This document shows positions 2,386 through 26,525 of a DNA stretch of 64,000 nucleotides, piece after piece. A program made the position numbers and the translations under genes. The notes below the pieces were generated by a model, which saw only the letters and a list, made by a program, of their open reading frames with translations, ran no database searches and had not been told where the DNA came from. Source of the stretch: a virus (lineage: Duplodnaviria; Caudoviricetes); IMG/VR virus record IMGVR_UViG_2770939519_000001, positions 13,635-77,634 of that record. One strand, 5' to 3'. Numbering within the stretch: position 1 is the first letter of the stretch; each line of letters begins with the position of its first letter.

Positions 2386-2538
2386 GCAAGATCACGCCAT
2401 CACTTTTCACCGATACAACCACCACCCCCTACCAGGGTGCCGTCGCGATCCACCGATCGGCGCCGTCGTAGATCACCGATGTAGCCACCGCACTCACTGG
2501 TGACCGCGGCGAGAACGAAAACCGCCGCCACAGCGACA

Positions 2539-3323
2539 ACTTCCTGTCCGGCTACGACCTCTGGATGCACCAGCGCTACAAAGAGCTCCTCAGCCGCCAC
2601 ATCCCGTCGTTCGTTTACGCCTCCGAGGAAGCCGATCCGGAGGTGATCGGCAACGACCCCGACCCAGACCTGTGTGTCATCGTGGACCCACTCGACACCA
2701 GCGAACTCGCCGTTCGCGGCCTCTACGGCTACACCCACGTGCTGGTCTACTCACGCCGACAAGCCCGACCCACCATCGCCGTGGTCGGCGACATTTTCCA
2801 TCACCTACAGGTCTACGTCGCAGCCCAGGACCGAGACGGCAACGATCGCGCATTCCTACTCACGCGGGATGGCCACGAACACACCCTCGATCGCCCTTCC
2901 CAAGTTCAACTACCCGCAGCGCTCGTGACGAACTACCTCATGCGACCCGAACAACGATTCCAACCCCTTGCCGCTCAGCAGGACTTCCTCGCCGCCCTCA
3001 GCGCTGAATCGCCAGACGGCAAGGCCCGCGGCCGCATCGGCGTTGATTTCGGGTCCATCGGCCTCTGCCACGTCGCGGCTGGCCTGTCCGATGCGATGAT
3101 CGAATTCGCCAAAGGCTTTGCGATCTGGGATCTCTCCCCGGGCCACTACATTCTGCATGCGGCAGGGGGCGTCGTAACCGATCTGCAAGGGGCGTCCATC
3201 GCGCTCGACTACAACCTCGACTCGTTGACCGATATCAAACAAGCCATGGATCAGCGGCGTCGGTTCATCGCAGCTGGAAACGTAAATCTCGCTGGGCAGA
3301 TTCGAAAATCGTTGCGGCAGTGA
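2539..3323 (+). pseudogene. Inositol monophosphatase-family protein, 5'-truncated by IS21
   Basis: IVDPLDTS and WDLSPGHYILHAAGGVVTD motifs; the frame is open back to the IS end (FLSGYDLWMHQRY) with no RBS before the first ATG. Confidence 0.75.
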
Positions 3324-3502
3324 AGAAGACGCGACTACGAACGCCCCTGCGCCCTTCGGATTCAGGGCAGCCACCGAACCTGCTTTGTCCGCGACCCCGC
3401 CGCTGCGTCTTCGGTTCCTCCCACCCGCTTAGCTGTCTATACATCCCATAGGCTATGAACTGTGAGGTATTTTCGGAGCAGCCAACCGAAAGGACCACCA
3501 CC

Positions 3503-3946
3503 GTGGCCACAGGAGACACCCTCCTAACCCTCACCGGCAACCTAACCGCCGACCCTGAACTACGCTTCACAGCCCAAGGTCAAGCCGTAGCCAATTTCAC
3601 CGTCGCTTCCACCCCCCGCTCGTTCAACAAGACCACCAGCCAGTGGGAAGACGGCGAAGCCCTGTTCCTGCGCTGCACCGTCTGGCGCGACCAAGCCGAG
3701 AACATCGCCGAATCCCTGACCCGCGGAACCCGAGTCATCGTCACCGGCCGCCTCAAATCCCGCACCTTCGACACCAAGGACGGCGACAAACGCACCGTCC
3801 TCGAACTCGAAGTCGACGAGATCGGCCCCTCACTCCGCAACGCCCAAGCCAAAGTCACCAAGTCCGCGACGAAAAACTCTGGCGCACAACCTCAGTGGGC
3901 AGCAGCCGCACCGGCCCGACAGCCAACCGACGCCCCGCCATTCTAG
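3503..3946 (+). CDS. ssb: Single-stranded DNA-binding protein (phage type)
   Basis: [12 protein letters not shown]...VANFTVAST...FLRCTVW motifs, C-terminal DAPPF; GAAAGGA RBS before GTG. Confidence 0.95.
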
Positions 3947-3958
3947 AAGGCGCACGCC

Positions 3959-4102
3959 ATGCATCTCCTCGACACCGAAATCCTGCACGAGGACATCACC
4001 CAAATCCTCGACCGCGCAATACCGAGCGACGAACCCACCCAATCCGCCATGCACCGCCTACGCACCCTCCTCGACAGCGGCATCCGCCTACGCCCGGAAT
4101 AG
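3959..4102 (+). CDS. Small hypothetical protein (47 aa, MHLLDTEILHEDITQ...)
   Basis: Fills the gap between ssb and whiB in operon style; GAAGG upstream. Confidence 0.55.
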   Translation: MHLLDTEILHEDITQILDRAIPSDEPTQSAMHRLRTLLDSGIRLRPE

Positions 4103-4121
4103 AGAGCGCCCACAACTTCAT

Positions 4122-4406
4122 ATGGCCCCCCACGACCGAGACTGGATGGTCCGCGCGAAATGCCGCGGCACCGACGACTACGCCGCCTACGACGCCGACA
4201 ACCGCGGCGGCGGCCAAGCCGAACAACTCGAACGTGCCTGCGGCGGCTGCACCGTCAAACCCGAATGCGCCGCCTACGCACTCAAACACGAATCCACCAT
4301 CGGCGGCATGATCTGGGCCGGCGTCCCCATCCCCGAATCACCCACCACCATCTACTACCACCGGGCACTGGACCGACTCCGCGTCATCGCCAGAAACGCC
4401 CGATGA
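4122..4406 (+). CDS. WhiB-like Fe-S transcription factor
   Basis: W-x4-AKC...CGGCTVKPEC-AAYAL...GMIWAGV; four Cys plus the G-x-W-(A/G)-G turn. Confidence 0.85.
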   Translation: MAPHDRDWMVRAKCRGTDDYAAYDADNRGGGQAEQLERACGGCTVKPECAAYALKHESTIGGMIWAGVPIPESPTTIYYHRALDRLRVIARNAR

Positions 4407-4816
4407 CCACCCCGCCCGAACTGCTTACCGCCGCAGCAACATTCACCAAACCGCTCTACACCATCACCATCCCCGGCGAACCGGTCCCCAAAAAACGCCC
4501 CCGCTTCGACGGCCGCCGCGCCTTCACCACCCGCGACGACCACAACGCCGAAGCACACACCGGATGGCATCTGGCCCAAGCGATCCCACAACCACTGACA
4601 GGAAACCTCGCCGTCGCCTGCGTGTTCTACCGCAGCACCCGCCGCCCCGTCGACGCCGACAACCTCATCAAACACGTCATGGACGCAGGCAACGGCATCG
4701 CCTGGCGCGACGACTCCCAATGCACCGCCGAATTCGGCGTCATCGAACTCGACCGCACCAACCCCCGCACCACCATCCTCATCGCCCGCCACAACTCCAC
4801 CCTGAAACGCAGATGA
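4403..4816 (+). CDS. rusA: RusA-family Holliday junction resolvase
   Basis: GEPVPKKRPR, DADNLIKHVMDAGNGIAWRDDSQ catalytic motif; ATGA overlap. Confidence 0.9.
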   Translation: MTTPPELLTAAATFTKPLYTITIPGEPVPKKRPRFDGRRAFTTRDDHNAEAHTGWHLAQAIPQPLTGNLAVACVFYRSTRRPVDADNLIKHVMDAGNGIAWRDDSQCTAEFGVIELDRTNPRTTILIARHNSTLKRR

Positions 4817-5088
4817 CCCTCACCCTCACCCGCACCGTCTACCGCCTGTTCGGCGTCCCCATCGCCTCCATCACCCGCCACCGCGCCACCCTCCCCGACC
4901 ACCTCCCCACGCCCACCACCCCCCTGCAAGCCACCGGCGCCATCCCGATCCTCAGCGACCACGGCTACGCCTACTCCTGCCGCCGCTGCGGCGAACTCCT
5001 CCTCGAGGGCCTCACCGAACCCATCGCCGGAGCCGACGCCATCGAACTAGTCCTCCACCACAACTGCCAGGAGAACCCCAGTGGCTGA
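4813..5088 (+). CDS. Hypothetical phage protein (CxxC...HxC, possible Zn ribbon)
   Basis: ATGA overlap with rusA; CRRC and HHNC. Confidence 0.55.
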   Translation: MTLTLTRTVYRLFGVPIASITRHRATLPDHLPTPTTPLQATGAIPILSDHGYAYSCRRCGELLLEGLTEPIAGADAIELVLHHNCQENPSG

Positions 5089-5326
5089 ACAACTCTCACC
5101 CCGAGACGACCTCGACCGCGCCATCCGCCGCTGGCTCGCCAACGAAACCAGCGGCGGCCTGGCCACCGACTACATCCTCTTCTCCGCCTACCTCGACCCC
5201 GCCCGCCACGGCACCGGCTACCACCTCGCGCTCTCCGAGGGCATCAGCTACCACGCCGCCAGCGGGTTGGCGGGCCACCTCCCCGCGGTCGTCGAGGACA
5301 CCTTCACCGGCGACGAGGACGACTGA
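5081..5326 (+). CDS. Hypothetical phage protein
   Basis: AGGAG RBS, overlap with the previous ORF, same codon bias. Confidence 0.6.
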   Translation: MAEQLSPRDDLDRAIRRWLANETSGGLATDYILFSAYLDPARHGTGYHLALSEGISYHAASGLAGHLPAVVEDTFTGDEDD

Positions 5327-5598
5327 GCCGAGCTGCGAAAGCCGCCGTATCAAGCCGAAAACGCTTCGGGCATTTTGGCCGATCGGCAGGAGTCGCACCT
5401 CGCGCAAATGTCCCACACGCTACTGACGAACCCGCGGCTGCGAGCCCGGCAGGCGCGCGCGTATCCATCCCTGGATAGCTGGTGAGCATGAAAAGCCCAG
5501 CCTGTCGCCTCGTAAGTTTCCGACCGCAGTGAAGCAGGGCTCGTAGAGTTCGTAAGTATGGCAGTCTGGCGGTCTATGTCGCCTCCGAGTGCAATAAT

Positions 5599-5614
5599 TC
5601 GAATGCATGTTCGA
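5599..5614. promoter_or_regulatory. LexA (SOS) box
   Basis: TCGAATGCATGTTCGA, one mismatch from the actinobacterial consensus TCGAAC-N4-GTTCGA, 25 bp upstream of the dprA-like GTG. Confidence 0.75.
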
Positions 5615-5639
5615 TGATCCTGAGCTGAGAGGAGGTCAG

Positions 5640-6596
5640 GTGACACACTCCTACGCCGCGCATCAGGGGGAAGGTGGCGAGGTCGAAGGATCGCTCCTCG
5701 GCAACGACAAGGAGCGTGCGGCGCTGGTAGCCATGATGCGGCTCGAGTCGAAGCGGGTGGATTGGTCGAAGCTGACCGAGCGACTCAGCGAACGTGGGAG
5801 CGCGGTGCTGCTGTGGGAAGACGAGCATCCGAAGGATCTGTTCGGCGATGGCGGCGATGCGGCGGTATTGCAGCAGGCCGAACGTGACATCCAGACATGG
5901 AAGCGCGCGCCGTTCCAATTTCACACCTTCACCGACCGGTCCTATCCCTCCCAGCTGCGATCGGTGCGTCAGGTTCCGCCGATGGTATTCACACACGGAA
6001 AACTGAAACCGGGCGAAATCGGAATCTGTGTTGTCGGTTCACGCAACGCAACCGACGCCGGTCTGACCTTCGCGCGCACCATCTGCCGATATTTGGTCGA
6101 CTCCGGCCTGACGGTGATTGCCGGATTGGCAAAAGGAATCGACACCGCTGCCCATCGCGCAGCATTGGATGCCGACGGCCGAACGGTGGCAGTGCTCGGC
6201 AACGGGCTGAATCGCGTGTATCCGCAAGAGAACCGCGACCTGCAAAACGAAATCTCCGAGCGCGGAATGTTGCTCACACACTTCCTGCCCGAATACCCGC
6301 CGTCGCGGTGGTCCTTCCCGGCTCGGAACGTCACCATGAGCGCATACGGGACAGCCACCGTGATCGTCGAAGCCAGCGAGAAAAGCGGCACGAGGATCCA
6401 AGCACGCGAAGCGGTCGCGCATGGCCGCCCAGTCATCATCAACGCCGCCGTGGTCGGTTCGACAACCTGGGGAAGGGCGCTGCAAAACGAACCGGGCGTC
6501 TATGTAGCCGAATCGGCACAACAGGCCTTCGAGCACGTTCAGAAGATTCTGCATCATCGCGAGATGGTCTCCCAGTTGCTGGGCTCCGCACGGTGA
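5640..6596 (+). CDS. DprA/SMF-family protein (ShosA-like antitoxin)
   Basis: VVGSRNAT, IAGLAKGIDTAAH, TVAVLGNG, FPARN, VEASEKSGT; GGAGG RBS before GTG 5640. Confidence 0.9.
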   Translation: MTHSYAAHQGEGGEVEGSLLGNDKERAALVAMMRLESKRVDWSKLTERLSERGSAVLLWEDEHPKDLFGDGGDAAVLQQAERDIQTWKRAPFQFHTFTDRSYPSQLRSVRQVPPMVFTHGKLKPGEIGICVVGSRNATDAGLTFARTICRYLVDSGLTVIAGLAKGIDTAAHRAALDADGRTVAVLGNGLNRVYPQENRDLQNEISERGMLLTHFLPEYPPSRWSFPARNVTMSAYGTATVIVEASEKSGTRIQAREAVAHGRPVIINAAVVGSTTWGRALQNEPGVYVAESAQQAFEHVQKILHHREMVSQLLGSAR

Positions 6597-6661
6597 GCAG
6601 CGGCGTGATCGAGGTCTCGCGCCCGCTTTCTGAGATGGACGCCCGCGAATCCGAGTGATAG

Positions 6662-7504
6662 ATGAATGAGAACCCCCAGATCAGCGAGGCCGCACAACTG
6701 GTCCGACGCCTCGTTCGCGACAGCGTTGGAGCGTTCTTCCGCAACACCTATGCCCCTGGCACTCTCGACATCTGTTCGGTATGCCGAGCGCCGGCCAATG
6801 GAAACCTCTGCGATGACTGCCGCAGCCACCGCGCCGACTACGGAAACCAACTGGCCGACCGCACGATCCTGCTCACCTATGCGCAGGGCAAGCACCCGGG
6901 GGGCCCGCACCAGTCCGCCCATGTCGTCCGGGCGTACAAGGGCTACTTCGGTACTCCCGCTTCCCCGGAGTGTCAGGAATACATGAAACTGATGGTCCGA
7001 GTCGCGGCCGAAATCCATCGGCCATGCTTCGAAGGCTGGCTCGGCATATCCTGGGATTCCCTCACCTTCATTCCGTCACGAGAACGGCCCGACGCCAGCC
7101 ATCCCGTCGCTGCGCTCGCGCGTGCCGTGGAATCTCCCGACGGGCCGACTTCTCCCCTGGACCGGTTCCTTCTCGAGACAGGCCCAGGCGCAGTCATAAG
7201 CGCGAAACATCAACTGGTCGAGGACCGCTTCCTGGTACCGGAAAAATGGCGCTCCGCCGTCGATGGCAAGAACGTACTGATCGTCGATGATACGTGGACC
7301 AGAGGCGCAAGCGCTCAAGGCGCAGCCATCGCCGCCAAGCAAGCAGGTGCCGCCACTGTGACAGTCCTGTGCGTCTCGCGGTGGCTGAACTGGAACTGGG
7401 CACCCAACGAGCGATTGCTCAGTTCCCTGGCCGAGGATTACAACGCACTGCTCTGCCCTGTGACCGGGCAAGTGTGCCAATCCGCCATCAACTACCGAGC
7501 TTGA
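6662..7504 (+). CDS. ComF-like phosphoribosyltransferase (ShosT-like toxin)
   Basis: N-terminal CSVC...CDDC Zn motif; PRPP loop VLIVDDTWTRGAS. Confidence 0.85.
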   Translation: MNENPQISEAAQLVRRLVRDSVGAFFRNTYAPGTLDICSVCRAPANGNLCDDCRSHRADYGNQLADRTILLTYAQGKHPGGPHQSAHVVRAYKGYFGTPASPECQEYMKLMVRVAAEIHRPCFEGWLGISWDSLTFIPSRERPDASHPVAALARAVESPDGPTSPLDRFLLETGPGAVISAKHQLVEDRFLVPEKWRSAVDGKNVLIVDDTWTRGASAQGAAIAAKQAGAATVTVLCVSRWLNWNWAPNERLLSSLAEDYNALLCPVTGQVCQSAINYRA

Positions 7505-7666
7505 ACCCTGTTGTAAGCCACCCGGCTCGGAATGCATACGCGCACAGCCGGATCGGCCCGTATTGGCAGTGGAGCCAGTGGTAGTCCCCGTCCCCTATCG
7601 CCTGATTTGTCTGCTATGCCGAGCTGCTTTAAGCTGCGCGGGCAGACGTGCACTGGAGGGGGAGAT

Positions 7667-8155
7667 ATGTCCGTGTGGCCTCGGATCGTGGTCGCGGTAG
7701 CCGTGGCGATCGCGCTTGCGGGATGCAGCGAAGAGACTCGTCCCTCCGGCCCGTTCGACACCTGCCGCGACCTCAGCACGACCATGCTGACACAAGCGGG
7801 AATCGATCCGGCCAGCAAGCAGGACACCGTAGTGACCGGACCGCTGACGCCGAGCTGCGTATATGGGCTGAAGAACCCCGCCGGATCGGTGCGGTTCGAC
7901 CAGCTTTCAAATCTGACCTATTCGTCGGAGCTGGCGAGAGAGCAGAAGATCGCACAGGGCGTAACGGTCAAGGCGGCGCGTATCAACGACCGCAATGCGT
8001 ACACCAAGTCGGTGGAAGGCTTTCTGTCCAAATGCGATCTGATCATGGAACTGAAGCAGGGCGTAGAGGTGATCTCGGTCTTCGCGGGATCAGATCAGTG
8101 TGGCATCGCCACCCGGATCGGCACCGCGATCGACCCGGTTATCGGCAAGCGTTGA
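7667..8155 (+). CDS. Lipoprotein, DUF3558-like
   Basis: Signal peptide with lipobox ALAGC; DTC...PSCVY...CDL...DQC pattern recalled for DUF3558. Confidence 0.7.
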   Translation: MSVWPRIVVAVAVAIALAGCSEETRPSGPFDTCRDLSTTMLTQAGIDPASKQDTVVTGPLTPSCVYGLKNPAGSVRFDQLSNLTYSSELAREQKIAQGVTVKAARINDRNAYTKSVEGFLSKCDLIMELKQGVEVISVFAGSDQCGIATRIGTAIDPVIGKR

Positions 8156-8372
8156 CAAGCTGACGGGTGCGCCTCCGCCTACTGCGATCGAGCCGGATTC
8201 TATTGCGGTGCAACTGATCTGCCCAGGTCGCCTCATCGACTCAAACATGCCCAGCGAGAGAAGAAGGTGCCAACTGGGCAGAGGCGGTCCACTGTCGAGG
8301 CGCGGGGTACCGGTCATCGGTTCATCCACCGCGCTCGGGCTAAGCTCATTTCTGTTGGGCGGGAGGAGAACT

Positions 8373-9257
8373 GTGACACGAGACTGGGCAACGCTACTCC
8401 AGGTCATGCCAGACTTTCTGGAGCCGGACGTCTCCGCTGGCGGCGACATCATTCCCGCCAATGAACGTTTCCAACTGCGAGATCTCGAGACGGGCTACTT
8501 CGTCGACTTCACCGGGGAGGGAAAAGGTCTGAAGATTACCGTACCCACCCCGCCAGATCCCGATGTCGCCGAGCGCACCCTCAGCATCATCCAGAAGCAG
8601 CCCGCCGGGATGTGGATAAGGGACAGCGTGTAGTGGCCCGACGACGCCGACGAGTTGAACACCGGCTGGCGATATTTCCACGGCGACCCCGCTGTCGCCG
8701 CTTCCGTCGTGACAGTCATGTGTAATGGGCTGGGCATGGACATGCGTCGACTGCGATCCCGCGCTTGGGATGACAAAGGACCTCAGCTCTTTTACACTGA
8801 AAGCGACTGGCCGACAAGTCGCAATGCCGCGGCGCGGTGCACGGACTGGGACGACTTTACCGACAGGCTCGACTGGGTGCTACACACCATGCCGCAGAGC
8901 GCGATCACTCTCACCGCTCCCGATCAGCAGACAATTCAGTTCACACACCAGTACAACGGAACATTCAGTTGCGAAGCCAGCCACGACCCTGGCAATGCCG
9001 AATCCGCCAGGCGCATGGCGGAGTTGGGTTGGACATATGAAACCACCAGCTACCCGAGGTTCGAACTCTGGTCGCCACCAACCGGGCGAGCGGGGCGCAA
9101 ACCAGTACTGAACAACGCCGCATACCGTGCGGTCACTACCTTCCGCGAGGTCTACGGCATCGACAGCCTACGGCGGTTACAGGTCGAGGTCACTTCTCTA
9201 CGATCGCGCCTCGACGAAATGTCTTACGTCGCTATCGAACTGGGACTCAAAGACTGA
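8373..9257 (+). pseudogene. TY-Chap-like (YbjN/T3SS-chaperone-fold) protein with in-frame TAG at 8631-8633
   Basis: ORFs 8100-8633 and 8655-9257 are in the same frame; GGAGG RBS before GTG 8373; CTDWDDFTDRLDWVLHTMP is shared with the 15541-16519 paralog; family name recalled, not searched. Confidence 0.55.
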
Positions 9258-9406: not shown

Positions 9407-10010
9407 CTACTCGTCCTCGGGTTCATCAAGCCACGCTTGATATTCGGGATTGACGATAGCCAGACTGATGACATTGGGGATCGCAGACAAATTGACGACC
9501 ACGTTCGGCAGGTTCCAACCGATTGTCGCGTCGACCCCCGGTTCATGTCGATTCGGCGCGCCTGGGATTGCTGTCAGAGCTGTGCTGAGAGCGGAGAAGC
9601 TGTCGCTCACTTGCTCACCGGCCGACGGCAGGAGGCGGTAACGATGGCGAGATATGGCTGGGATGCAGGTGGATGTTTCGCCTGAGTGGTAAGAGTAGAA
9701 ATGCGTGAAGCCCCGACTCGGATCGAGTCAGGACTTCGCGAGAGCCCTTCAGCGGGAAGGAGTCTCCCAGGTCATGATGAGCGCAAATATCTGCCGCTGG
9801 CACAAGACCGGCTACCCAGAAATTCTTCAACGCCCGCGCGACCGGGCTTGTCGACTGCGGGCTGGTGATCAACACCGGAGTTCGGCCATCGAGTCGGCCC
9901 AATTGCCAGCCGCGTCGCTCGCTGAGATGGCCAGGCCTGTCTACAGGCCACGGCCAGTCGAATCCGATTGCTGCGCAAAAGATCTGCACGGCCTCGATAT
10001 CCTGTCGCAT
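9407..10010 (-). pseudogene. Fragmented fifth immunity paralog (N-terminal piece 10010 to about 9830; C-terminal piece 9610-9407)
   Basis: MRQDIEAVQIFCAAIGFDWPW...GWQL and GWNLPNVVVNL...NPEYQAWLDE align with the intact paralogs. Confidence 0.65.
9701..9790. repeat. Hairpin-containing direct repeat, copy 1
   Basis: ATGCGTGAAGCCCCGACTCGG identical to 15368-15388; stem GAAGCCCCGACTCG/CGAGTCAGGACTTC. Confidence 0.8.
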
Positions 10011-10031
10011 CGGGTACTGGGGGAGCCGCGG

Positions 10032-10550
10032 TCAGTTCTGGGGCCAGACGCTGTCGAGATCGGGATGAGCTTCGGGCTCGATCCAATCATCGTTTCGTCC
10101 TGCCATGCCTGGTTCGGGGCTGACCAGCGAGACATTGCCCGAGCCATCACTCACCGTAATCTTCAGAACAATACCGGGCACGTCCCAACGCAACATTCGG
10201 TTCGGATCTCGCCACCACCATCCTGTCGGAAGCTGCCCTACCAGCACGAATATCCGCTGCGCCAATGCGTCGAAAGCATTGGACAACAACGGCTTTGTGC
10301 TCGAGTCATTCAAGACCACGTCGGTGAAGTAGAACCAGACCTGATCGACAGGCCGAGGCCCGCAATCGAGGAACCTGTCGAGGAGGCTATAGCTTCGGTG
10401 CGGTTGAGGTCGAAGTCGGTAGTCAGTGCGGGGGTCGTTGGTCGAGATCGGTCACTCGCCAGCCAACTTGCTGCGCGAATCCGAGGAGATCATCGATGGT
10501 CCACGTCCAATCGAACTCCGAGGCGACCCCGTACTGATGTCTGATCGCAT
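10032..10550 (-). pseudogene. DUF6301-like immunity paralog, frameshifted
   Basis: ATG CGA TCA GAC (MRSD) at 10550; EFDWTWTIDDL and LRWDVPGIVL in shifted frames. Confidence 0.75.
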
Positions 10551-10580
10551 TGGAATGTGTTCTGCTCGACCGGGATCGAT

Positions 10581-11084
10581 TCAGTCTTCTTCCAGGTTCG
10601 CGTCGTTCTCGTCGTTCCACTTCTGATACGCGGGACTGATGAAGTTCAAATACACCCCGGTCTTGCTCGTGGTCACCGTCACCACGATGCCAGGAAGATC
10701 CCAACGCAGCCCGCGGGTCGGCTCGACCCAGCTTCCGTCCGGGCGCTTCTCGACCACCTCGAACACGCGCTGCGTGAGTTCGTCGAATACCCTATCAATT
10801 TCAGGCTTCATCCCCGGATCGTTGACGATCGCATCGGTGACGTTGAACGTGATCTGCTCCAACGGCCGCGGCACGTCCGGATTCACTCTGTTGTTGATAT
10901 ACAGCAAGGCGTCGGTGCGCTCGATCGCGAGATCGGTGGTCAAGGAGGGGGATCGGTCCTCGGGTCGGCTCTGTTGCCAACCGACTCGGTCGCTGAAATC
11001 AGCCAGGTCTGCAACGGTCCATGCCCACTCGAATTCGGATGCTGCACGGACGATCTGTGCGGCGCGCTCGATGTCTCTCTGCAT
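10581..11084 (-). CDS. DUF6301-like putative immunity protein (intact)
   Basis: MQRDIERAAQIVRAASEFEWAWT...LRWDLPG...SPAYQKW; close paralog of 12368-12868. Confidence 0.8.
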   Translation of the reverse strand: MQRDIERAAQIVRAASEFEWAWTVADLADFSDRVGWQQSRPEDRSPSLTTDLAIERTDALLYINNRVNPDVPRPLEQITFNVTDAIVNDPGMKPEIDRVFDELTQRVFEVVEKRPDGSWVEPTRGLRWDLPGIVVTVTTSKTGVYLNFISPAYQKWNDENDANLEED

Positions 11085-11319
11085 CTTGGGACACTGCTTT
11101 CTTGCTGTGGCGGCTCGGTTTCAGACCATCACGAGCGGTTGTTGCTTCCCATAACCCGAGAGCGCAAGTGCGTTTCACAGGAAGGCGCCGTGCGTCAGGT
11201 ATTTGAGCTACTCGACTTTGGTGCTGTCCTCGTCCCCACAGCCACCGACGAGTAGCGATCGCCACTCACAGCATGTCGAAACCCGGTCACGCCAGAGGAT
11301 TTCGGTGGAGGTCACCCAC

Positions 11320-11879
11320 TCACACCTGTCTGTGACCTAAGTGAGAGTCTAGTCTCCGCGGGGTCCAGACACTGGCGAGATCAGGGTGCATATCGGGGTC
11401 GATGCGATCATCGATATCGTCCTGGTATTCGGGGCTGACCAGCGCAACGTTGTCCGAGGTGTCGCTCACCGAAATTTTCAGCACGAGTCCGGGCAAGTCT
11501 CAACGCAACATCCGATTCGGATCTTGCCACCACCGACCAGCGGGCGTTGACCGACGAGCTGGAATATCCGTTGTGCAAGCTCGTCGAAAGCATTGGACAG
11601 CAGTGGCTTTACATTCGCATCATCCAGGATGACATCGGTGAAGTAGATCCAGATCCGCTTTGTTGGACGCGCCGGATCGACTGAGTTGTCATGGAATGCC
11701 ATGACGTCGGTTCGGTTGATGTCGAAGTCGGTAGTCAGTGTGGGGGAGCGCTGGTCGAGGTTGGCCAGCTGCCAGCCAACTTGCCGGACGAATTCGGGGA
11801 GGTCGTCGACGGTCCAGGCCCAATTGAACTCCAAGGCACCCTGGATGACCTGAATGGCACGGTCGAGGTCTGCTCGCAT
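11320..11879 (-). pseudogene. DUF6301-like immunity paralog, frameshifted near 11530
   Basis: MRADLDRAIQVI...EFNWAWT, then DLPGLVLKISVSD...SPEYQ in another frame. Confidence 0.75.
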
Positions 11880-12367
11880 GGATGGACTGCTCTTCTTTGT
11901 GGGGCAAGCCGGTTCGGGGCGGTGCGAGGCTGGTGCCGCCTCGCACCGCGCGGTGAAGGTACGTGTTCATAGGTAGGTCAAACACCTGAGGCTTTCCGCT
12001 CGGGTCGTGTCCTGGGCGGAAGGCTTGCGTTGTGCGATGGCGACAGTTACCGGCGGGATCGCAACAGCGAAGGTCACGGAGCCAGCTGCGAGCCGGGCGA
12101 GCAAGTTGTCGAGCGGTCTGTTCTCGGAGCCGGCGACCGCGGGAATTGGCAGCGCGACGCCATGTAGTCTCGGCTCCGAGATTTCGTCCGCAGGTGGAGT
12201 GGCCAGTGGCTTTGCCGGTTTCGGTGTCGTCGGGACATTTCCCACTCGATCCGTCGTCTCGCCTCTCTGATGCGGCGTGCTGTTTACTCACTTAGGACCG
12301 GTTCCGGCCCCAGATTCACGCGGTTGCCGCACAAGCGATCTACACGGCGAGCTCGATCACTCAGCTT

Positions 12368-12868
12368 CTATTCGTCGCCGTCGGCCTCGATTTTGTCCTG
12401 CCATCTCTGATACTCGGGACTGACCAACTCGACATAGACAGTGCGAGCACTGGTCGTCACCGCTACTGCGATCGTGGGCAAATGCCAGCGCAGGCCGCGG
12501 GTGGGTTCGACCCACCACTCGTCGGCCCGTCGCCCCAACACCTCGAACACCCGTTGTGCGAGCTCATCGAATACCCGGTCGATCTCGGGCTTCAGATTCG
12601 TATCGTCGAGTATCACGTCGGTTGTCCTGAACCAGATATGGTTGAGCGGACGTGAGTCGCCGGTTCCGACTGTGTTGTCGACCGACAGCATGGTGTCGCG
12701 ACGATTGACGTCGAGATCGGTGGTCAGTTCGGGATACGTCTGATCCAGACCGGTCAGCTGCCAGCCGACCAGGTCGCTGAAGGCGGGGAGGTCGGCCGCG
12801 GTCCAGGTCCAGTCGAATTCCGTTGCGGTGCGCACGATCTGCGCGGCACGTTCGATGTCTGTACGCAT
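12368..12868 (-). CDS. DUF6301-like putative cognate immunity protein
   Basis: 166 aa, immediately downstream of the toxin; MRTDIERAAQIVRTATEFDWTW. Confidence 0.8.
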   Translation of the reverse strand: MRTDIERAAQIVRTATEFDWTWTAADLPAFSDLVGWQLTGLDQTYPELTTDLDVNRRDTMLSVDNTVGTGDSRPLNHIWFRTTDVILDDTNLKPEIDRVFDELAQRVFEVLGRRADEWWVEPTRGLRWHLPTIAVAVTTSARTVYVELVSPEYQRWQDKIEADGDE

Positions 12869-12962
12869 CTGTATGAACAGTACTTTCTCGCTGCTGCGGT
12901 TCGGGGCTTCACAGCACCCCCTGTGGGTGTAGCTTTCCACAACAAGGTCGTGAAGGGTGCGC

Positions 12963-15185
12963 TCACAGATGAGCGCCGTGAGTGAGACATTTGAGCCACT
13001 CATCCCAAGGAGCACCCTGGGCGGATGCTGGGCGGGGTGCGATGGTAACCACCATTGATTGATCTGCCGGTCGGCGGCGGTTCCAGAACCCCTGCTGCAA
13101 CTCCGGAATCTCGGGTACGGGGATGTGGAGTTGGGCGAGAGCGGACACGTCGTGCAGTCGTCCCTGAACCAGCTCTCCGAACCACGTTGTGGCTTGACCG
13201 AGCAGGCCGCCCAACGAGTTGTCGGTGTAGGGGGCGGGTTGTGTAAGCGGTTGCGCTACTCCGTGAATAGTGGGGCCATGCCCTGGCTCTTGGCCAGTTG
13301 TCTTACCTATGACAGTGTCGCCGGGGGTCCAACCGTTGGCCGGCTCTTGATTGGAGCCGTAGATAATGATGTTTCCATCGGTGTCGGTTTTGATCAGGCG
13401 GTAGCCGACTCGGGCGGGGTCTTCATTTTGGACCGCGTCCCACACTCCATTGTCGACCAGCCATTGCATGAAGGCTGGATCATTGGCCGCATCTTCCTTG
13501 AGTTTGCCCCACAGGTAAGGGTCGGTCATCTGCTGAGCGCGAATCGTCGTATCGCTGTCGGGACCGTCGGGAACCATAGCGGTGCCCGGTCTGGGCTTGC
13601 CTGGATCGCCACCTTTCGATTCGATGACCATGATCTGGCCGTTCTTCACGGCGACCAGGTCATGCGTGTACGCACCAGAGGGCCGAGTATTCACTGTCCA
13701 GCCGTCGGATTTGAGCATCGCGACCGCTCCGGCCTCACCAAGCAGTTCCTTGGCGCGGTCCACGGGGGCTTTCGCCTTCCACCAGGCGTCGATTGCTGCC
13801 TGCAGAGGGGCGGTGGGCAATCCGAGGTCGCTGAGATCCCGCAACTGAGCATTGCGTACATCTTTGTCGCTGCTGGTGAGTTTGCCGATATCGATGTCGA
13901 GGTTGGGGTTCTGCTCCTCGAGTCCTGAGGCCAGACCTTCGATCCCCTTGTAAAACATGTTCCGGTAGATCTTGGCGACCTCGACGACGCCCATGGCCAG
14001 CAAGACAGGTGGGCGATACTCTTCGTCCAAGTCTTCAAATTTCCAGCTCAGGAGGCGGATCAACTCGGACCTGAGACTGATCCTCCCGTCGCCCTTAGCG
14101 GCGAAACTGCCTGGCTGTTTTCCCTCTGGGTTTCCTTGCCCCCATCGCAGGGTGTTGCCGTCCCAGTACGTTCCTTCTACCGGAACCCAGGCTTGCCCAG
14201 GCTTCGTACTGGGGAACAGTTGTCGCTGATGGTTGGTATTCGGATCGTTTGCTGGTCCGGGGATTGTGGTCGGCGCAGTGCCGGGGTTGCCTTGGTTCAG
14301 CGCGTTCGGGCCGGGGGTTACGGTCGTAGTCGCACCGGGTCGGGTGTTGGGACTGGGGGTATCGGGCAGCGAATTGGGATCCAGGCGATCGTCGGATTCG
14401 CTACGGGGCTTGTCGTCGTTGCGTGTCAGGTAGAAGTGCAGAGCCGTAAGCCCGAGACCGACGACGACAGCCGCGCCAGCGCCGATGACGGCACCGGGAA
14501 CAGCTCCGACGCCTCCGCCGCCGACGGTGCCCACCGCCGCACCGATTTCACCTCCCTCGATTGCCATCGTCGCGAGCTCGGCGGCTGTGAGACCCGCCCC
14601 TGCCTCGAGCGCGCCGGTTCCGAGCGCCGCACCTGCGCCCGCACCCAACAGCGCGGTGCTGTTACCGTCGCTCCTGTCGTCGCCGTCGCTGCCCGATGAG
14701 ACTCGATTGCCCTGGCCGTCAATGGTGTACAGATACTCACCCGCGCGGTTCAGAACCGCGTAGCGAGGCTTCCCATCGGCTCCATCGGCCAGCTGAGTCT
14801 TAGTGGCGGGGTAGGGGTCGCTGGCGTAATGGGGTTGTTCCGCGGGGACATTGATTTCGACGCGGCTACCGTCGCTGGGGTCGTAACCGTGATAGGTGTG
14901 GGCCGGTTGCGGCGCGGCGGGGACCAGGCCTGGGGAGTTCGGGTTGTAGGCCGGGAGGTCCGAGGCTTGTGGGCGCGAGGAATTCTGTCCCGGTTGAGAA
15001 TTCGAGGCGGGAGACTGTGACTGTTGCTGGTTGGCAATCGTGGACCACACCGGATCCTGGGCGACTCTGTCGTTGTTCGCCTGGATCGCGGCCCGCGCGG
15101 CCGGGTCGCCCAATATCGCGGCTGCACCTGGATCGAGTGGGGGGGTTTTGGTTGAGTCGGACGACGAGTTCGGCTGGGGAGCCAT
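12963..15185 (-). CDS. Polymorphic toxin-like protein: Gly-zipper/hydrophobic segment plus PD-(D/E)XK nuclease
   Basis: GAGAGAALGTG...VVVGLGLTAL hydrophobic stretch; LGEAGA...HDLVAVKNGQIMVIESKGG restriction-fold motif; followed by the immunity array. Confidence 0.75.
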   Translation of the reverse strand: MAPQPNSSSDSTKTPPLDPGAAAILGDPAARAAIQANNDRVAQDPVWSTIANQQQSQSPASNSQPGQNSSRPQASDLPAYNPNSPGLVPAAPQPAHTYHGYDPSDGSRVEINVPAEQPHYASDPYPATKTQLADGADGKPRYAVLNRAGEYLYTIDGQGNRVSSGSDGDDRSDGNSTALLGAGAGAALGTGALEAGAGLTAAELATMAIEGGEIGAAVGTVGGGGVGAVPGAVIGAGAAVVVGLGLTALHFYLTRNDDKPRSESDDRLDPNSLPDTPSPNTRPGATTTVTPGPNALNQGNPGTAPTTIPGPANDPNTNHQRQLFPSTKPGQAWVPVEGTYWDGNTLRWGQGNPEGKQPGSFAAKGDGRISLRSELIRLLSWKFEDLDEEYRPPVLLAMGVVEVAKIYRNMFYKGIEGLASGLEEQNPNLDIDIGKLTSSDKDVRNAQLRDLSDLGLPTAPLQAAIDAWWKAKAPVDRAKELLGEAGAVAMLKSDGWTVNTRPSGAYTHDLVAVKNGQIMVIESKGGDPGKPRPGTAMVPDGPDSDTTIRAQQMTDPYLWGKLKEDAANDPAFMQWLVDNGVWDAVQNEDPARVGYRLIKTDTDGNIIIYGSNQEPANGWTPGDTVIGKTTGQEPGHGPTIHGVAQPLTQPAPYTDNSLGGLLGQATTWFGELVQGRLHDVSALAQLHIPVPEIPELQQGFWNRRRPADQSMVVTIAPRPASAQGAPWDEWLKCLTHGAHL

Positions 15186-16519: not shown

Positions 16520-16642
16520 AGTTATCCCCAATCCCTTTGATCGCCAACAACATAGCGACGCACCCCGACATCCTCGGCCCTGGCCGACTCAGCCAGACCG
16601 CTACGCCAGCGAGATCTCCAGGTTTGGGCTAGTTTGCGTGAT

Positions 16643-17764
16643 ATGCGTGATCAGATCGACGGACCGACACAGTCCGCGACCGAGAATCCCGAAGCGGCGC
16701 AACCGAACCCGGCCCAGACTCGACGTTTCGGCCCGCTGTCCGCGATTCCGGCGATGGAGCAGCCGGACGTCGCGCTGGTGGGTAAACCGGAGTACGCCGA
16801 ACTGCTGATGACGACCGTCCGTCGGCGTGCCCGGATACACGGTCGATTGGTGGGCTTGGCGGCCGCGATCCCGCTTGTCCTGATGGTCGTGCTGTGGGTG
16901 TTGCACCAGGACGCCATCGCGATGGCCGTGACCGCGGTGGCTGCCTTCGTGGTATTCCTGCGGTGGATGGGAATCGGGCCGCTGGCGCGGACCTATCGCG
17001 CGGTGATCCCACTCGACGGGCAGTCGATGACCATCCGATTCGGTCCCGACGCGTTCGACTTGCAAGGCCCCGGCGACCGGGTCCGCTTCCCGCACAGCCG
17101 CTTCCGCGCGATTCAGGTCGAGCCGGAAACGATTACCTTGCGCATGCGAAACACCCTGATCACCTTCCCGCGAGAACTGTTCCCGGACACGGCGATCGAC
17201 TACCTCCGCGCCCGATTAGCCGGACATGACGATGTCGCCGCTCCGCCGCCGCTGCCCTCGCTCCCGCCGCTGGGTCAGCCGACCGCGCAGGTCACGGCCG
17301 GACCGGACACTGCTTCGCAGCTTGCCTGGGCAGTCACCTGGCGAAGCAATCGGCAACTGACCCAGCTCAATGCCATCGTTGCCGTGACGCTCGTACTCAC
17401 CGCCGTAGTGGTCGGCGGTGAACGAGGTCTGGCCGCCGGTGCCTTCGCGGCGGGCGTGATCATTCTCGTCGTGCTGGCCGCCCGCCTGACCGCGGCGGTG
17501 ATCGACTTCGCCCGCATGCAAAGAGGATTCACCGCTTACGCCGCCGACGGCGACGTGCTCGCCACCAGGTTCGGACCCGACGCGTTCGCGGTGCGCACCG
17601 CCGAAATGCACAGCCACATCCGATACGACAGAATCGCCAAACTGACCGTCCGCCGTCACACGGTGCTCATGACCCACGGCGGCCGTGCCACGGCGTACCC
17701 GCGGGAATTGTTCCCCGATACAGCAATAGCGCATATACGCGCGGCCAACCCGAGTTTGCTCTGA
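16643..17764 (+). CDS. Membrane protein with two YcxB-like domains
   Basis: Two units, each a TM pair followed by RFGPDAF...(F/Y)PRELFPD. Confidence 0.7.
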   Translation: MRDQIDGPTQSATENPEAAQPNPAQTRRFGPLSAIPAMEQPDVALVGKPEYAELLMTTVRRRARIHGRLVGLAAAIPLVLMVVLWVLHQDAIAMAVTAVAAFVVFLRWMGIGPLARTYRAVIPLDGQSMTIRFGPDAFDLQGPGDRVRFPHSRFRAIQVEPETITLRMRNTLITFPRELFPDTAIDYLRARLAGHDDVAAPPPLPSLPPLGQPTAQVTAGPDTASQLAWAVTWRSNRQLTQLNAIVAVTLVLTAVVVGGERGLAAGAFAAGVIILVVLAARLTAAVIDFARMQRGFTAYAADGDVLATRFGPDAFAVRTAEMHSHIRYDRIAKLTVRRHTVLMTHGGRATAYPRELFPDTAIAHIRAANPSLL

Positions 17765-17779
17765 GGCTGGGAGACATGG

Positions 17780-17815
17780 GTAGGCCGAGCGCCCTCCGGA
17801 TAGCGCCCGGCCTAC
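17780..17815. terminator. Stem-loop between convergent genes
   Basis: GTAGGCCGAGCGC/GCGCCCGGCCTAC inverted repeat. Confidence 0.7.
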
Positions 17816-17833
17816 GAAAAGCTCACCCCACCA

Positions 17834-17932
17834 CTACACGACCGCGACCACCGAACCGAGCAGCAAGCCGACAAACGACACCGCGGCAGCGACAGCGACA
17901 CCGAGCAGACTTCCAACACCGGGCAGCAACAT
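17834..17932 (-). CDS. 32-aa uncharged hydrophobic peptide, copy 3 (MLLPGVGSLLGVAVAAAVSFVGLLLGSVVAVV)
   Basis: ATG to TAG, 99 nt; GAAAGGA RBS; paralogous to the other two copies. Confidence 0.8.
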   Translation of the reverse strand: MLLPGVGSLLGVAVAAAVSFVGLLLGSVVAVV

Positions 17933-17992
17933 GACCGTTCCTTTCGGTTGACTGTGAATAGGTAGGTAGTGCTTTCAGGGCCGCGCAGTCGA

Positions 17993-18091
17993 TTACAGAA
18001 CCGCCACCACAGATCCGAGCAGAAGACCAGCGAAAGTCACCACAGCAGCGACAGCGACGCCGAGCAGACTTCCGACACCGGGCAGCAACAT
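17993..18091 (-). CDS. 32-aa uncharged hydrophobic peptide, copy 2 (MLLPGVGSLLGVAVAAVVTFAGLLLGSVVAVL)
   Basis: 99 nt; GAAAGGA RBS. Confidence 0.8.
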   Translation of the reverse strand: MLLPGVGSLLGVAVAAVVTFAGLLLGSVVAVL

Positions 18092-18201
18092 GACAGGTCC
18101 TTTCGTAGGCGAATTGCAGTGCGAACGTTGAAGCAGGCACACGACACAGCAGGTGCGTGGCCTGGGGAAACGTGAATGCGAACTACGAACGTCTTCCGCG
18201 A

Positions 18202-18300
18202 TCAGATAATCGCGACCGCGGCACCCAGTAGGACGCCGACGAAAGCCGACACTGCGGCAACGGCGACACCAGCAATACTTCCAACGACGGGCAGCAACAT
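18202..18300 (-). CDS. 32-aa uncharged hydrophobic peptide, copy 1 (MLLPVVGSIAGVAVAAVSAFVGVLLGAAVAII)
   Basis: 99 nt; GAAAGGA RBS. Confidence 0.8.
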   Translation of the reverse strand: MLLPVVGSIAGVAVAAVSAFVGVLLGAAVAII

Positions 18301-18605
18301 GGAGCGTGTCCTTTCTGATGGTCCGGTATTCCGGTGCGGTGCTTCGTAATCCATGTCTACCCAGGCTTCTGAATTCATAACCACACAGACGCGCAATATT
18401 TTTCGCGCCCCGCACACCGGGTCATTTCCGGCATTTCGCTCGAATCAGGGTCGCGGTAGTCAGCGCCGACTTATGCCGAGTGCATGGCCGGGCAACTGTA
18501 AATCCAAGCCAGGACCACCCAACGCGCCGGTTATGGTTCATAGGCTATTGGGTTCCGACCGGGCATTCACCCGTCGAACCGACGTCGGATCGGAAGGCAA
18601 TCACG

Positions 18606-19406
18606 ATGACCGACCGCCCCTGGATCGAGCGTCCCCTCGGCGGCTTCGACCTCGAAACCACAAGCCCCGACCCCGAATCCGCACGGATCGTGTCGGCCTG
18701 CCTGGTACTGATCGAACCAACCGGCCCCCGCCTGCGAACCTGGCTACTCAATCCCGGCATCGACATCCCCGCCGAAGCCGCAGCCATACACGGCATCACC
18801 ACCGAACAAGCCCGCACCGAAGGAACCGACTACGCGAGCGGATACCGCGACATACGCCGAGAACTCTGCCGCGCGTGGGAAAACGGCTACGCGATCGCCA
18901 TGTACAACGGCGCCTACGACTGCACCGTAATGGACCGACAAGGCCGCGCACTCGACTGGCCCGCCCTCCACGTCGGCCTCACCGTGGACCCGTACGTCAT
19001 CGACCGCGCCGTCGACCCGGACCGACCCGGCCCCCGACGCCTGGACGCCACCATCGCCCACTACGGCCTCCCCATGGGAGACGCACACACCGCCGACGCC
19101 GACGCACTGGCAGCCGCCCGCCTGGCCTGGCTCCTCGGCCGCCGCCACCCCCGGATCGGCGCCCTCACCCCCGAACAGCTGATGAACGCCCAAACCGACT
19201 GGCACCAAACCCATTCCGACAACTATCGCGACTGGGCCACCCGCAAAGCCGCCGAACTCCGCGACCAGGCCACCGCACTACAGCACCGAGCCACCGAACT
19301 GACCACCCGCGCCGCCCACACCGACGGCAGCTGGCCCCTCCGAAGGGTGTTCAAACATCGTGACAACCACCTCCAGCCCACTAACCTCGAAACCGTGGGC
19401 ACGTAA
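18606..19406 (+). CDS. DEDDh 3'-5' exonuclease (DnaQ-like)
   Basis: FDLETT, HGITTE, YNGAYD, HTADADA motifs. Confidence 0.9.
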   Translation: MTDRPWIERPLGGFDLETTSPDPESARIVSACLVLIEPTGPRLRTWLLNPGIDIPAEAAAIHGITTEQARTEGTDYASGYRDIRRELCRAWENGYAIAMYNGAYDCTVMDRQGRALDWPALHVGLTVDPYVIDRAVDPDRPGPRRLDATIAHYGLPMGDAHTADADALAAARLAWLLGRRHPRIGALTPEQLMNAQTDWHQTHSDNYRDWATRKAAELRDQATALQHRATELTTRAAHTDGSWPLRRVFKHRDNHLQPTNLETVGT

Positions 19407-24803: not shown

Positions 24804-26525
24804 ATGCCGGTTGAAGTCGTCAAGCCTCGCCGTTCCTCGCGCAGTTGTTCGCTGGGTTGGCTGGCGATCAATTGGATCGAGAGTTTGGTTGTGCACGGCG
24901 CGGGTGACGTGGTCGGTATGCCGGTGGAGCTGATCGATGATCAGGCCGCGTTTCTGCTCGACACGTATGCCCTTGCCGCGCCCGGTGAGCCGGATGAGGG
25001 TCGACGCTTGGTCGACGAGGTGTTGATGCTGGCTCCCAAGGGTGCGGACAAGTCCGGTCTCGCCGCGCGAATGCTGATGTGGGAGGCCATCGGGCCGTCG
25101 CGATTCGACGGGTGGGCCAAGGGTGGTGAGGTCTATCGGGATCCGTGGGGCCTCGGCTTCGAATACGAATTCCAGCCGGGTGAGCCGCTCGGGCGTCCGG
25201 TGGACAATCCGTTCATCCGGTGCCTGGCGACGGCGGCGGATCAGTCGTCGAATACCTATGAATCCATCCTGTACAACTTCCGTGACGGTCCACTGTCGGA
25301 GGCGATGCGTCGCCGGGACAATGCCGGTATCACGCGGATCGTGCTGCCCGAGGGCGGGGAGATCATCCCGTCGACCGCGTCGGGCTCGTCGAAGGATGGT
25401 GGCCGCGAGACCGCGGCGAATGCGGACGAGACCCATCTGTATGTGCTGCCCGAGTTGAAGAATATGTTCCGGGTGGTGAACCGCAATCTGCGCAAGCGTG
25501 CGAAATTCGCTGAGCCGCTGATGATTGCGACGTCGACCTACTACGATCCCGCCGACGGGTCGATCTGTCAGGAGCAGCACGAGCTGGCGCTGAAGATCCG
25601 GGCGGGAAAGGTCAAGAACGACCGGTTGCTGCTGCACTATCGGTACGGCGATATCGAGCCCGCCGATCTGGGCGATACTCCGAAGCTGCGCGCGGCGCTG
25701 GCGGAGGCCTATGGCGGCGCGGCGAAGTGGATGGATCTGGATGCGCTGGTCACCGAGGTGCAGGATCCGCGTAATCCGGTCGAGGCGTCGTATCGGTACT
25801 TTCTGAATTCACCGTCGACGGCGTCGAATGCGTGGTTGTCGCCCTGGGAATGGGCGCGCTGCGGACCGATCGACGATGATCTCGACACGCACCGGCGGAT
25901 CGAGCCGGGTGATGTGATCGTGCTGGGTTTCGACGGTTCTCGTAAACGCAAGCGCGGCATTACCGATTCGACGGCTCTGATCGGTTGTCGGGTGTCGGAC
26001 GGTTGTTTGTTCGAGGTCAAGGTGTGGGAGCAGCCGCCGGGGCATCATCCCGATGGCTGGGAGGTCGATACGACCGCGGTCGACGCGGCGGTCGAGCAGG
26101 CGTTTCGCACCTACAACGTCGTCGGTTTCTACGCCGATCCGGCGCTGTGGGAAACCTATGTAGCCAAGTGGGAGGCGAAGTACGGGGCGAGATTGCTGGT
26201 GAAGTCCACGCAGCCGCATCCGATCGAATGGTGGATGACCGGCGCGCGGGCATTCAAAACCGTTGAGGCGCTGCGCAAGTTCCAGGACGCGGTGCTCGAT
26301 GGCGAGCTGTGTCACGACGGTTCGCCGATCCTTACCCAGCATGTACTCAATGCGCGGCGGTTCGCTTCCACCAAGGGTGTGCAGATTCGCAAGGAGCATC
26401 CGGATTCGGCGAACAAGATCGATGCCGCCGTCGCGGCCACGCTGGCGTGGCAGGCCCGGCTCGACGCGGTCGCCAAGGGTATCGGCGGGAAGAAGCGCAA
26501 ACGGATCGCGGTTCGAGTCCGCTAG
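24804..26525 (+). CDS. terL: Terminase large subunit
   Basis: PKGADKSG Walker A, ADETH Walker B, VLGFDGS nuclease, KIDAAVA. Confidence 0.95.
   Translation: MPVEVVKPRRSSRSCSLGWLAINWIESLVVHGAGDVVGMPVELIDDQAAFLLDTYALAAPGEPDEGRRLVDEVLMLAPKGADKSGLAARMLMWEAIGPSRFDGWAKGGEVYRDPWGLGFEYEFQPGEPLGRPVDNPFIRCLATAADQSSNTYESILYNFRDGPLSEAMRRRDNAGITRIVLPEGGEIIPSTASGSSKDGGRETAANADETHLYVLPELKNMFRVVNRNLRKRAKFAEPLMIATSTYYDPADGSICQEQHELALKIRAGKVKNDRLLLHYRYGDIEPADLGDTPKLRAALAEAYGGAAKWMDLDALVTEVQDPRNPVEASYRYFLNSPSTASNAWLSPWEWARCGPIDDDLDTHRRIEPGDVIVLGFDGSRKRKRGITDSTALIGCRVSDGCLFEVKVWEQPPGHHPDGWEVDTTAVDAAVEQAFRTYNVVGFYADPALWETYVAKWEAKYGARLLVKSTQPHPIEWWMTGARAFKTVEALRKFQDAVLDGELCHDGSPILTQHVLNARRFASTKGVQIRKEHPDSANKIDAAVAATLAWQARLDAVAKGIGGKKRKRIAVRVR

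Follow-up and report, generated by a model that had tools for sequence, protein, structure and literature searches.

The window examined here, a stretch of viral DNA 64,000 nucleotides in length, contains a tandem array of three very short genes on its minus strand, each with an ATG start and 32 codons: gene C (18202-18300), the first in the array, gene B (17993-18091), and gene A (17834-17932), the last. Sequence and alignment place a Shine-Dalgarno (SD) motif, GAAAGGA, 8 nt before the ATG of gene C (18309-18315) and 6 nt before those of genes B (18098-18104) and A (17939-17945), in all three cases on the minus strand. A preliminary description of this DNA had reported three 99-nt ORFs for uncharged peptides, each with its own GAAAGGA and separated by unrelated spacers, and both observations hold: nucleotide similarity between the copies is restricted to the SD and the ORF, and ends outside them. 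The encoded peptides, with masses of 2.95-3.01 kDa and GRAVY values of 2.2-2.4, contain no D, E, K, R, H, N, or Q, and the gene C product opens with MLLPxVGS. The exact sequence of the gene B product is already present in public assemblies, and the gene A product is annotated, in the same surroundings, in GCA_003350585.1, GCA_001304815.1, and SRR7168590.

Across the whole 8.4-Mb source genome, 28 ATG-initiated ORFs of 25-40 aa lack D, E, K, R, H, N, and Q; ten have an SD, and nine of these ten are members of one peptide family, described below. The tenth (G000:C31:145768-145854, plus strand) encodes 28 aa with the unrelated start MLVALASG, and sits after glpX- and fumC-like genes with its own hairpin 3' of the ORF. 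Between the window array and a convergent gene for a 376-aa membrane protein (16634-17764, plus strand) lies a G+C-rich hairpin with a 14-bp stem, identified by folding (17780-17815); the 72-nt segment that contains it (17765-17836) folds at -38.1 kcal/mol (z = -2.9). The hairpin is probably a bidirectional terminator or a 3'-end stabiliser.

The window is a prophage, and the three peptide genes lie inside it, between two runs of prophage genes at 709-9257 and 18603-43239. To the left of the array are genes for a protein with a Mu-transposase C-terminal domain, an IMPase, SSB, RusA, DprA, and a TY-Chap3 protein. To the right are genes for an exonuclease, an HTH protein, the large terminase subunit (TerL, 24804-26525), and portal, scaffold, major head, and major tail proteins, together with a 2524-aa ORF (35665-43239), probably the tape measure gene. 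The exonuclease, a DnaQ-like 3'-5' enzyme (RNase_T, phrog_192; 18603-19406, plus strand), belongs to the prophage early region and is divergent from the array. A 740-aa protein is encoded nearby (12963-15185, minus strand; 950 aa in one relative, loci L058-L060), its gene followed by several DUF6301 genes, with TY-Chap3 proteins on the flanks. The block composed of the exonuclease, the peptides, the 376-aa protein, TY-Chap3, a large toxin, and DUF6301 recurs in GCA_003350585.1, GCA_001304815.1, and SRR7168590, where one or three peptide genes have been called and the outer flanks are partly different.

The preliminary description had the array converging, across a shared hairpin, on a double-YcxB membrane gene. 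Convergence, hairpin, and duplication are all real: the 376-aa protein is an internal duplication of a unit of two transmembrane (TM) segments plus a domain of about 65 aa, and its halves align at E 2e-12. The YcxB label itself is weaker, as the match to PF14317 covers the second repeat only and scores 14.4 bits (E 0.03) against a gathering score of 23.3. It had further been proposed that the peptides are toxins and the YcxB-like protein their immunity factor. The convergent arrangement, the common hairpin, and the joint occurrence of the genes in three closely related assemblies speak for such a pair, but co-occurrence beyond these assemblies is lacking. Homologues of the 376-aa protein are found in 35 of 200 species, 33 of which have no peptides, while in the other two the genes lie on different contigs; the five loci with the closest homologues (57-66% identical) contain no such peptide ORFs; and the main chromosomal peptide arrays, including those of six copies, have no YcxB-like neighbour. 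The pairing is therefore one of local synteny among close relatives and not a conserved system, and its interpretation as toxin and immunity factor, largely refuted by these counts, is very improbable.

Six further 32-aa paralogues are encoded in the same genome, in a second array on contig C39, bringing the total to nine copies. An HMM built from these nine copies detected tandem arrays of one to seven genes, for 28- or 32-aa relatives, in 24 of 200 other Nocardia species, among them N. pulmonis, N. brevicatena, and Nocardia sp. NPDC strains. This fraction is a lower bound, since the HMM missed a divergent pair of the same family located 70 nt from an esterase gene in a species scored as peptide-free. 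Applied to 115 genomes from 33 further genera of the same taxonomic family, the HMM gave no real match; a weak match in one genome (G069) lies within a long ORF and was discarded as a chance match.

All 45 unique sequences of the family, in its 32-aa and 28-aa forms, are uncharged, keep their length, and are preceded by an SD of the AGGAGG or GAAGGA type. Among positional orthologues from three species, pooled pS is 0.32 and pooled pN 0.107, and pairwise dN/dS is 0.08-0.45, below the value near 1 that would speak against the ORFs being genes. For gene C against its paralogues, dS is 0.6-1.4 and dN/dS 0.18-0.43. The earlier suggestion that selection acts on the peptide is thus upheld by the preservation of length, SD, and charge-free composition in about 25 species as well as by these ratios, and on this comparative evidence we regard the three window ORFs as real genes under purifying selection as peptides.

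Searched with a profile, a set of 1.84 billion representative proteins yielded six clusters only, all belonging to this family, and some copies have already been called in public assemblies as unnamed 32-aa proteins. Neither Pfam nor NCBIfam has a match to the peptides at E <= 1, Rfam has none either, the ESM Atlas gave no usable one, and a profile search of the PDB gave only small single-TM subunits at chance level (PsbJ, E about 3). A search of the literature for the family found no description. The family is undescribed, restricted to Nocardia, and invisible to standard annotation.

The window copies stand apart from the remainder of the family. Against all other copies their dS ranges from 0.4 up to saturation, with dN/dS of 0.09-0.58. 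So large a synonymous divergence from the chromosomal genes means that the prophage did not acquire its set recently from the C39 array of this host. Judged by these distances, the three genes represent a long-diverged set carried as prophage cargo. Neither blastn and tblastn against 50,697 phage records, in which the BLAST low-complexity filter may hide peptides of this composition, nor a pattern search of IMG/VR yielded relatives.

The 45 unique sequences share a simple architecture in which an N-terminal tail, M-L-L-P-x-V-G-S, is followed by an unbroken apolar stretch. M1, L3, P4, G7, S8, and G11 are invariant, L2, V14, G26, and A30 nearly so, and Ser8 is the sole invariant hydroxyl residue. 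Two stripes of small residues spaced i, i+4 (GxxxG/A) run along the predicted helix, G7-G11-A15 and G22-G26-A30; the 28-aa form has four residues fewer, with the gap between the two stripes, and its register is about kept. There is neither a positively charged n-region nor a cleavage site, and the sequence reads as one apolar helix, from which we infer that the peptides are membrane-inserting single helices. GxxxG stripes are typical helix-helix interfaces, and the two Gly/Ala stripes liken the peptides to TM helices of the glycine-zipper type (GxxxGxxxG), with a packing surface for which oligomers would be expected. The glycine zipper is, however, a structural motif and not a family, and predicts oligomerisation only.

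The same anatomy bears on the possibility that the peptides are exported surface-active or antimicrobial products, comparable to PSMs, chaplins, or leaderless bacteriocins, that would serve as a coat for aerial hyphae, as surfactants, or as weapons against competitors. The psm-alpha operon is a set of multi-copy leaderless small genes with an RBS for each, and the Nocardia arrays resemble Staphylococcus psm-alpha 1-4 in that their micro-ORFs are arranged in tandem, lack a leader, and have individual RBSs; the PSM product is abundant. Nocardia also forms aerial hyphae, and the distribution of the family within the genus is patchy. PSMs, however, are amphipathic, charged, and exported by the Pmt ABC transporter, whereas the Nocardia peptides are neither amphipathic nor cationic, and no conserved ABC exporter, immunity, or modification genes lie beside the arrays. 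Searches of Pfam and NCBIfam gave no bacteriocin or chaplin match, and we consider export of this kind improbable. A P450-modified RiPP, considered on account of a P450 gene near some arrays, was rejected, as the P450 is not conserved and the peptides contain no cross-linkable aromatic residues. An ABC ATPase gene lies near one single-copy peptide locus.

In the source genome, N. pulmonis, and Nocardia sp. NPDC051570, gyrA is followed by a DUF3566 gene, two tRNA genes, and two esterase genes, on which six peptide genes converge; upstream of the peptide genes, and in the same orientation, lies the gene for a hemophore-related secreted protein (TIGR04529), as it does in most 32-aa arrays. In five species without peptides the block downstream of DUF3566 is missing. 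Convergence of the array on an esterase gene of family PF00756, at a distance of about 70-450 bp, is seen in 18 of the 24 bearing species, namely in every one that has array and esterase on one contig (the assembly breaks at the array in two further species), and it holds despite different outer flanks, for example in 28-aa arrays. The window array, N. pulmonis scaffold 16 (L052), and two single-copy loci (L053 and L054) have no esterase neighbour. On scaffold 16 a single family gene (about 9950-10050, plus strand) lies some 400 nt upstream of a gene for an MMPL-family transporter with C-terminal CarboxypepD_reg/Ig-like domains (10454-13714, plus strand).

The adjacent esterase matches PF00756 at E 2e-28, and its best solved relative in the PDB is Cmt1 of Corynebacterium glutamicum (E 3e-78, 266 bits, full length), ahead of PS1 (162 bits) and Ag85 (95 bits; Ag85A, E 4e-26). 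Residues S191, E308, and H338 are invariant in 19 sequences and are taken to be the putative catalytic triad. By fold, triad, and nearest relative, the neighbour of the chromosomal arrays, though not of the window array, is predicted to be a Cmt1-like mycoloyltransferase. A maximum-likelihood tree places all peptide-adjacent esterases in one of two Cmt1-like clades (98/92), where they form a grade; an exclusive clade of peptide-linked esterases was not recovered, and paralogues of the same clade occur without peptides, for example on contig C12 of the source genome. Outside Nocardia, 24 genomes were inspected within 1.5 kb of their best Cmt1-like gene, and no such peptide ORFs turned up. In one genome of another genus, a 41-aa uncharged ORF rich in Ser, Gly, and Thr and preceded by an AGGAG SD (L162:701-826, minus strand) lies downstream of a Cmt1-like gene and may encode a PorA/ProtX-like small protein.

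The chromosomal arrays also carry signals of their own. In the chromosomal array, genes 1, 2, 5, and 6 each have a strong hairpin on their 3' side (z -4.4 to -6.7); comparison of species shows that the inter-gene hairpins are conserved and include at least one compensatory pair. Upstream of the first gene of nearly all chromosomal arrays of the family, in both the 28-aa and the 32-aa branches, is a conserved element of about 75 nt (L010:9745-9850, equivalent to the region upstream of the first peptide gene on C39 of the source genome; also L043-L055 and L104). In it, CCGACACGCCG is separated from TTGGCATGATC by about 30 nt that include a variable hairpin, and GCTAG comes 6-8 nt after TTGGCATGATC; the SD follows at a distance of about 30 nt. 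The chromosomal arrays therefore have their own conserved control region, and the element may serve as a promoter, as an operator, or as a leader. Interpretation as a sigma-54 promoter (GG-N10-GC) or a SigD-type promoter (GTAAC-N17-GAT) was dropped, since spacing and upstream hexamer are not kept between species in either case. Neither the element nor the arrays match any Rfam family. The 11-mer CCGACACGCCG, often after TT or TTT, is also found at a few intergenic-looking positions elsewhere in the source genome (C9:121604, C27:118001, C38:46566, and others), where no common downstream gene was seen. A match to 6C RNA (RF01066) just at the gathering score (L010:15709-15787, minus strand) lies about 6 kb from the chromosomal array, and RF01066 also matches in L050.

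The 75-nt element is not present before the window array, and with this element missing the prophage copies appear to be wired differently from the chromosomal ones. No sigma-70 promoter was detected when the window array was scanned. On the opposite, plus strand of the window array there is likewise no promoter-like site for an antisense partner, nor any match in Rfam.

These signals weigh on the idea that the peptides damage membranes, as type I toxin-like, holin-like, or abortive-infection products that are silenced by RNA structure or antisense RNA and serve prophage defence or lysis. The ldr, ibs, and zor loci are small hydrophobic ORFs in tandem repeats, and the Nocardia arrays resemble them; the genes are flanked by hairpins, and the window copies, in their prophage, adjoin a DprA module as well as a polymorphic toxin accompanied by DUF6301 genes. 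Like the single-TM type I toxins of 18-50 aa (Ibs, Ldr, Hok, Fst, TisB, DinQ), the peptides are missed by annotation, encoded in tandem loci, and sometimes borne by prophages. Type I toxins, however, contain charged or polar residues and have a cognate antisense RNA and tightly repressed translation, whereas the Nocardia genes have strong, exposed SDs in mostly unstructured spacers, no promoter-like site on the opposite strand, and no charged or polar tail. Up to seven intact copies are maintained under purifying selection at a core locus near gyrA in several species, and the searches of phage records and IMG/VR found no relatives. Membrane damage is in our judgement an improbable function. 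Of the membrane-inserting toxin or bacteriocin put forward in the preliminary description, the membrane-inserting helix survives as a prediction from composition, while nothing positive was found for toxicity: neither an antisense partner nor an exporter nor a charged tail.

A second peptide family emerged from a scan of esterase loci of the Cmt1-like clade in species scored as peptide-free. Its members, 27 aa long, uncharged, and starting with MLLSVTLPLG, are distinct in sequence from the first family, with S4, T6, P8, G10, and G12 invariant. With its own HMM the family was found as tandem pairs or triplets in nine further Nocardia species (L105:1421-1724, plus strand; L106:5365-5675, minus strand; L113-L132). 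In all seven species for which the esterase is listed, the arrays converge on a row of lipase-like, Cmt1-like, and LCM-methyltransferase genes. Although the two peptide families can no longer be aligned, both thus occupy one position and orientation next to a single clade of enzymes. A common ancestor is possible, and the linkage therefore shows long retention and not independent origin.

The reading we favour, to which we assign a probability of roughly 0.4, is that these are glycine-zipper envelope micropeptides tied to biogenesis of the mycolate envelope and probably acylated on Ser8 in the manner of PorA, PorH, and ProtX. As components of the mycolate cell envelope, they would be functionally coupled to the Cmt1-like mycoloyltransferase paralogue. 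Within a lipid layer, the stripes G7-G11-A15 and G22-G26-A30 would drive tight packing into homo- or hetero-oligomers, with the short N-terminal tail on the periplasmic side, and the Gly-flanked invariant Ser8, or Ser4 or Thr6 in the second family, would be O-mycoloylated. The resulting lipopeptide would then sit in, or pass to, the mycomembrane, like its presumed counterparts in Corynebacterium. High dosage is indicated by the multi-copy arrays, the strong SD of each copy, and the 3' hairpin that many copies have to themselves.

Precedent comes from Corynebacterium. Cmt1 moves mycolate onto Ser in flexible stretches rich in Gly, Ala, and Ser, in a small hydrophobic context and without a strict motif (PMC11066868). 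PorA, PorH, and ProtX are small, helical, and devoid of a signal peptide, and their residence in the mycomembrane requires mycoloylation by Cmt1 (PMC13643282); they also serve as phage receptors or conduits (PMC9671496). The Nocardia peptides are likewise tiny and predicted to be helical, have no Sec or Tat signal, occur in small multi-gene units, place a Ser in a Gly and small-hydrophobic context, and, in the main arrays, have a genomic tie to a Cmt1-type gene. Corynebacterium porin genes are not known to adjoin cmt1. The differences are also clear: 27-32 aa against 45-57 aa, arrays of up to seven genes, an additional prophage copy, and no detectable similarity to PorA, PorH, or ProtX, judged by Pfam, NCBIfam, and protein-cluster searches. 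Unlike PorA and PorH, the peptides are uncharged in all 45 sequences and have no amphipathic helix or hydrophilic face; this makes a water-filled pore or porin unlikely, and what would be expected is a role in structure, in packing, or in the tuning of permeability.

Several observations argue against an envelope function. Convergent genes are not co-transcribed, and all loci could descend from one ancestral esterase-plus-peptide locus, in which case the linkage could reflect inertia; the species with peptides are relatives of one another, not independent cases. The adjacent esterases are a grade, with peptide-free paralogues in the same clade, and the best Cmt1-like genes of 24 genomes from other genera have no such ORFs nearby. 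A fully apolar 32-mer would, moreover, by default remain in the cytoplasmic membrane. This last point leads to the view that the peptides are ordinary cytoplasmic-membrane micropeptides, in which a glycine-zipper helix modulates a membrane complex or tunes the bilayer while the synteny with Cmt1 is merely inherited. Retention in the inner membrane is the default fate of an apolar helix of 28-32 residues, and it would suit the GxxxG interfaces, the single-TM subunits that were the sole, chance-level PDB matches, and the copies away from any esterase (the window array, L052, L053, and L054), which also count against an envelope function. It leaves unexplained, however, why two families occupy the same convergent spot beside one Cmt1-like clade, why the N-terminal tail keeps an invariant Ser/Thr-Pro-Gly pattern, and why 5-9 copies are needed, and no candidate partner complex is linked to the genes. 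We regard this view, the chief rival of the envelope reading, as possible but on the unlikely side.

A more ambitious form of the envelope reading would make both families a new class of ultra-hydrophobic O-mycoloylated lipopeptides, each with its own Cmt1-like paralogue, which act as bulk structural or permeability components of the mycomembrane and have been captured by temperate phages to remodel the surface of the lysogen, for instance by receptor masking or superinfection exclusion; taken as a whole, this is doubtful. Under the favoured envelope reading, the prophage copies would raise or alter the pool of envelope peptides in a lysogen, possibly with an effect on phage adsorption. Superinfection exclusion, which the preliminary description had already raised, is conceivable for the window copies because they are prophage cargo. 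Of the surface roles suggested at the same time, a place at the cell surface or in the envelope would agree with the Cmt1-like gene conserved beside the main arrays; the amyloid version found no positive evidence, and the surfactant one is improbable, as set out above.

The delivery of proteins to the mycomembrane of Mycobacteriales is an open question, and the small helical mycomembrane proteins known so far come almost all from Corynebacterium. The link between this peptide family and Cmt1-like genes is new, and the function proposed for it is read from comparative genomics. Were the products plain inner-membrane micropeptides, they would still constitute a clean new small-protein family, of modest reach. 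The work also illustrates that gene finders and family databases miss abundant genes of 27-32 codons, and that a prophage can carry envelope micropeptides of what would be host type. A multi-copy, unannotated family tied to paralogues of the sole enzyme known to lipidate such proteins would offer a concrete set of candidate mycomembrane peptides in Nocardia, a genus that includes opportunistic pathogens.
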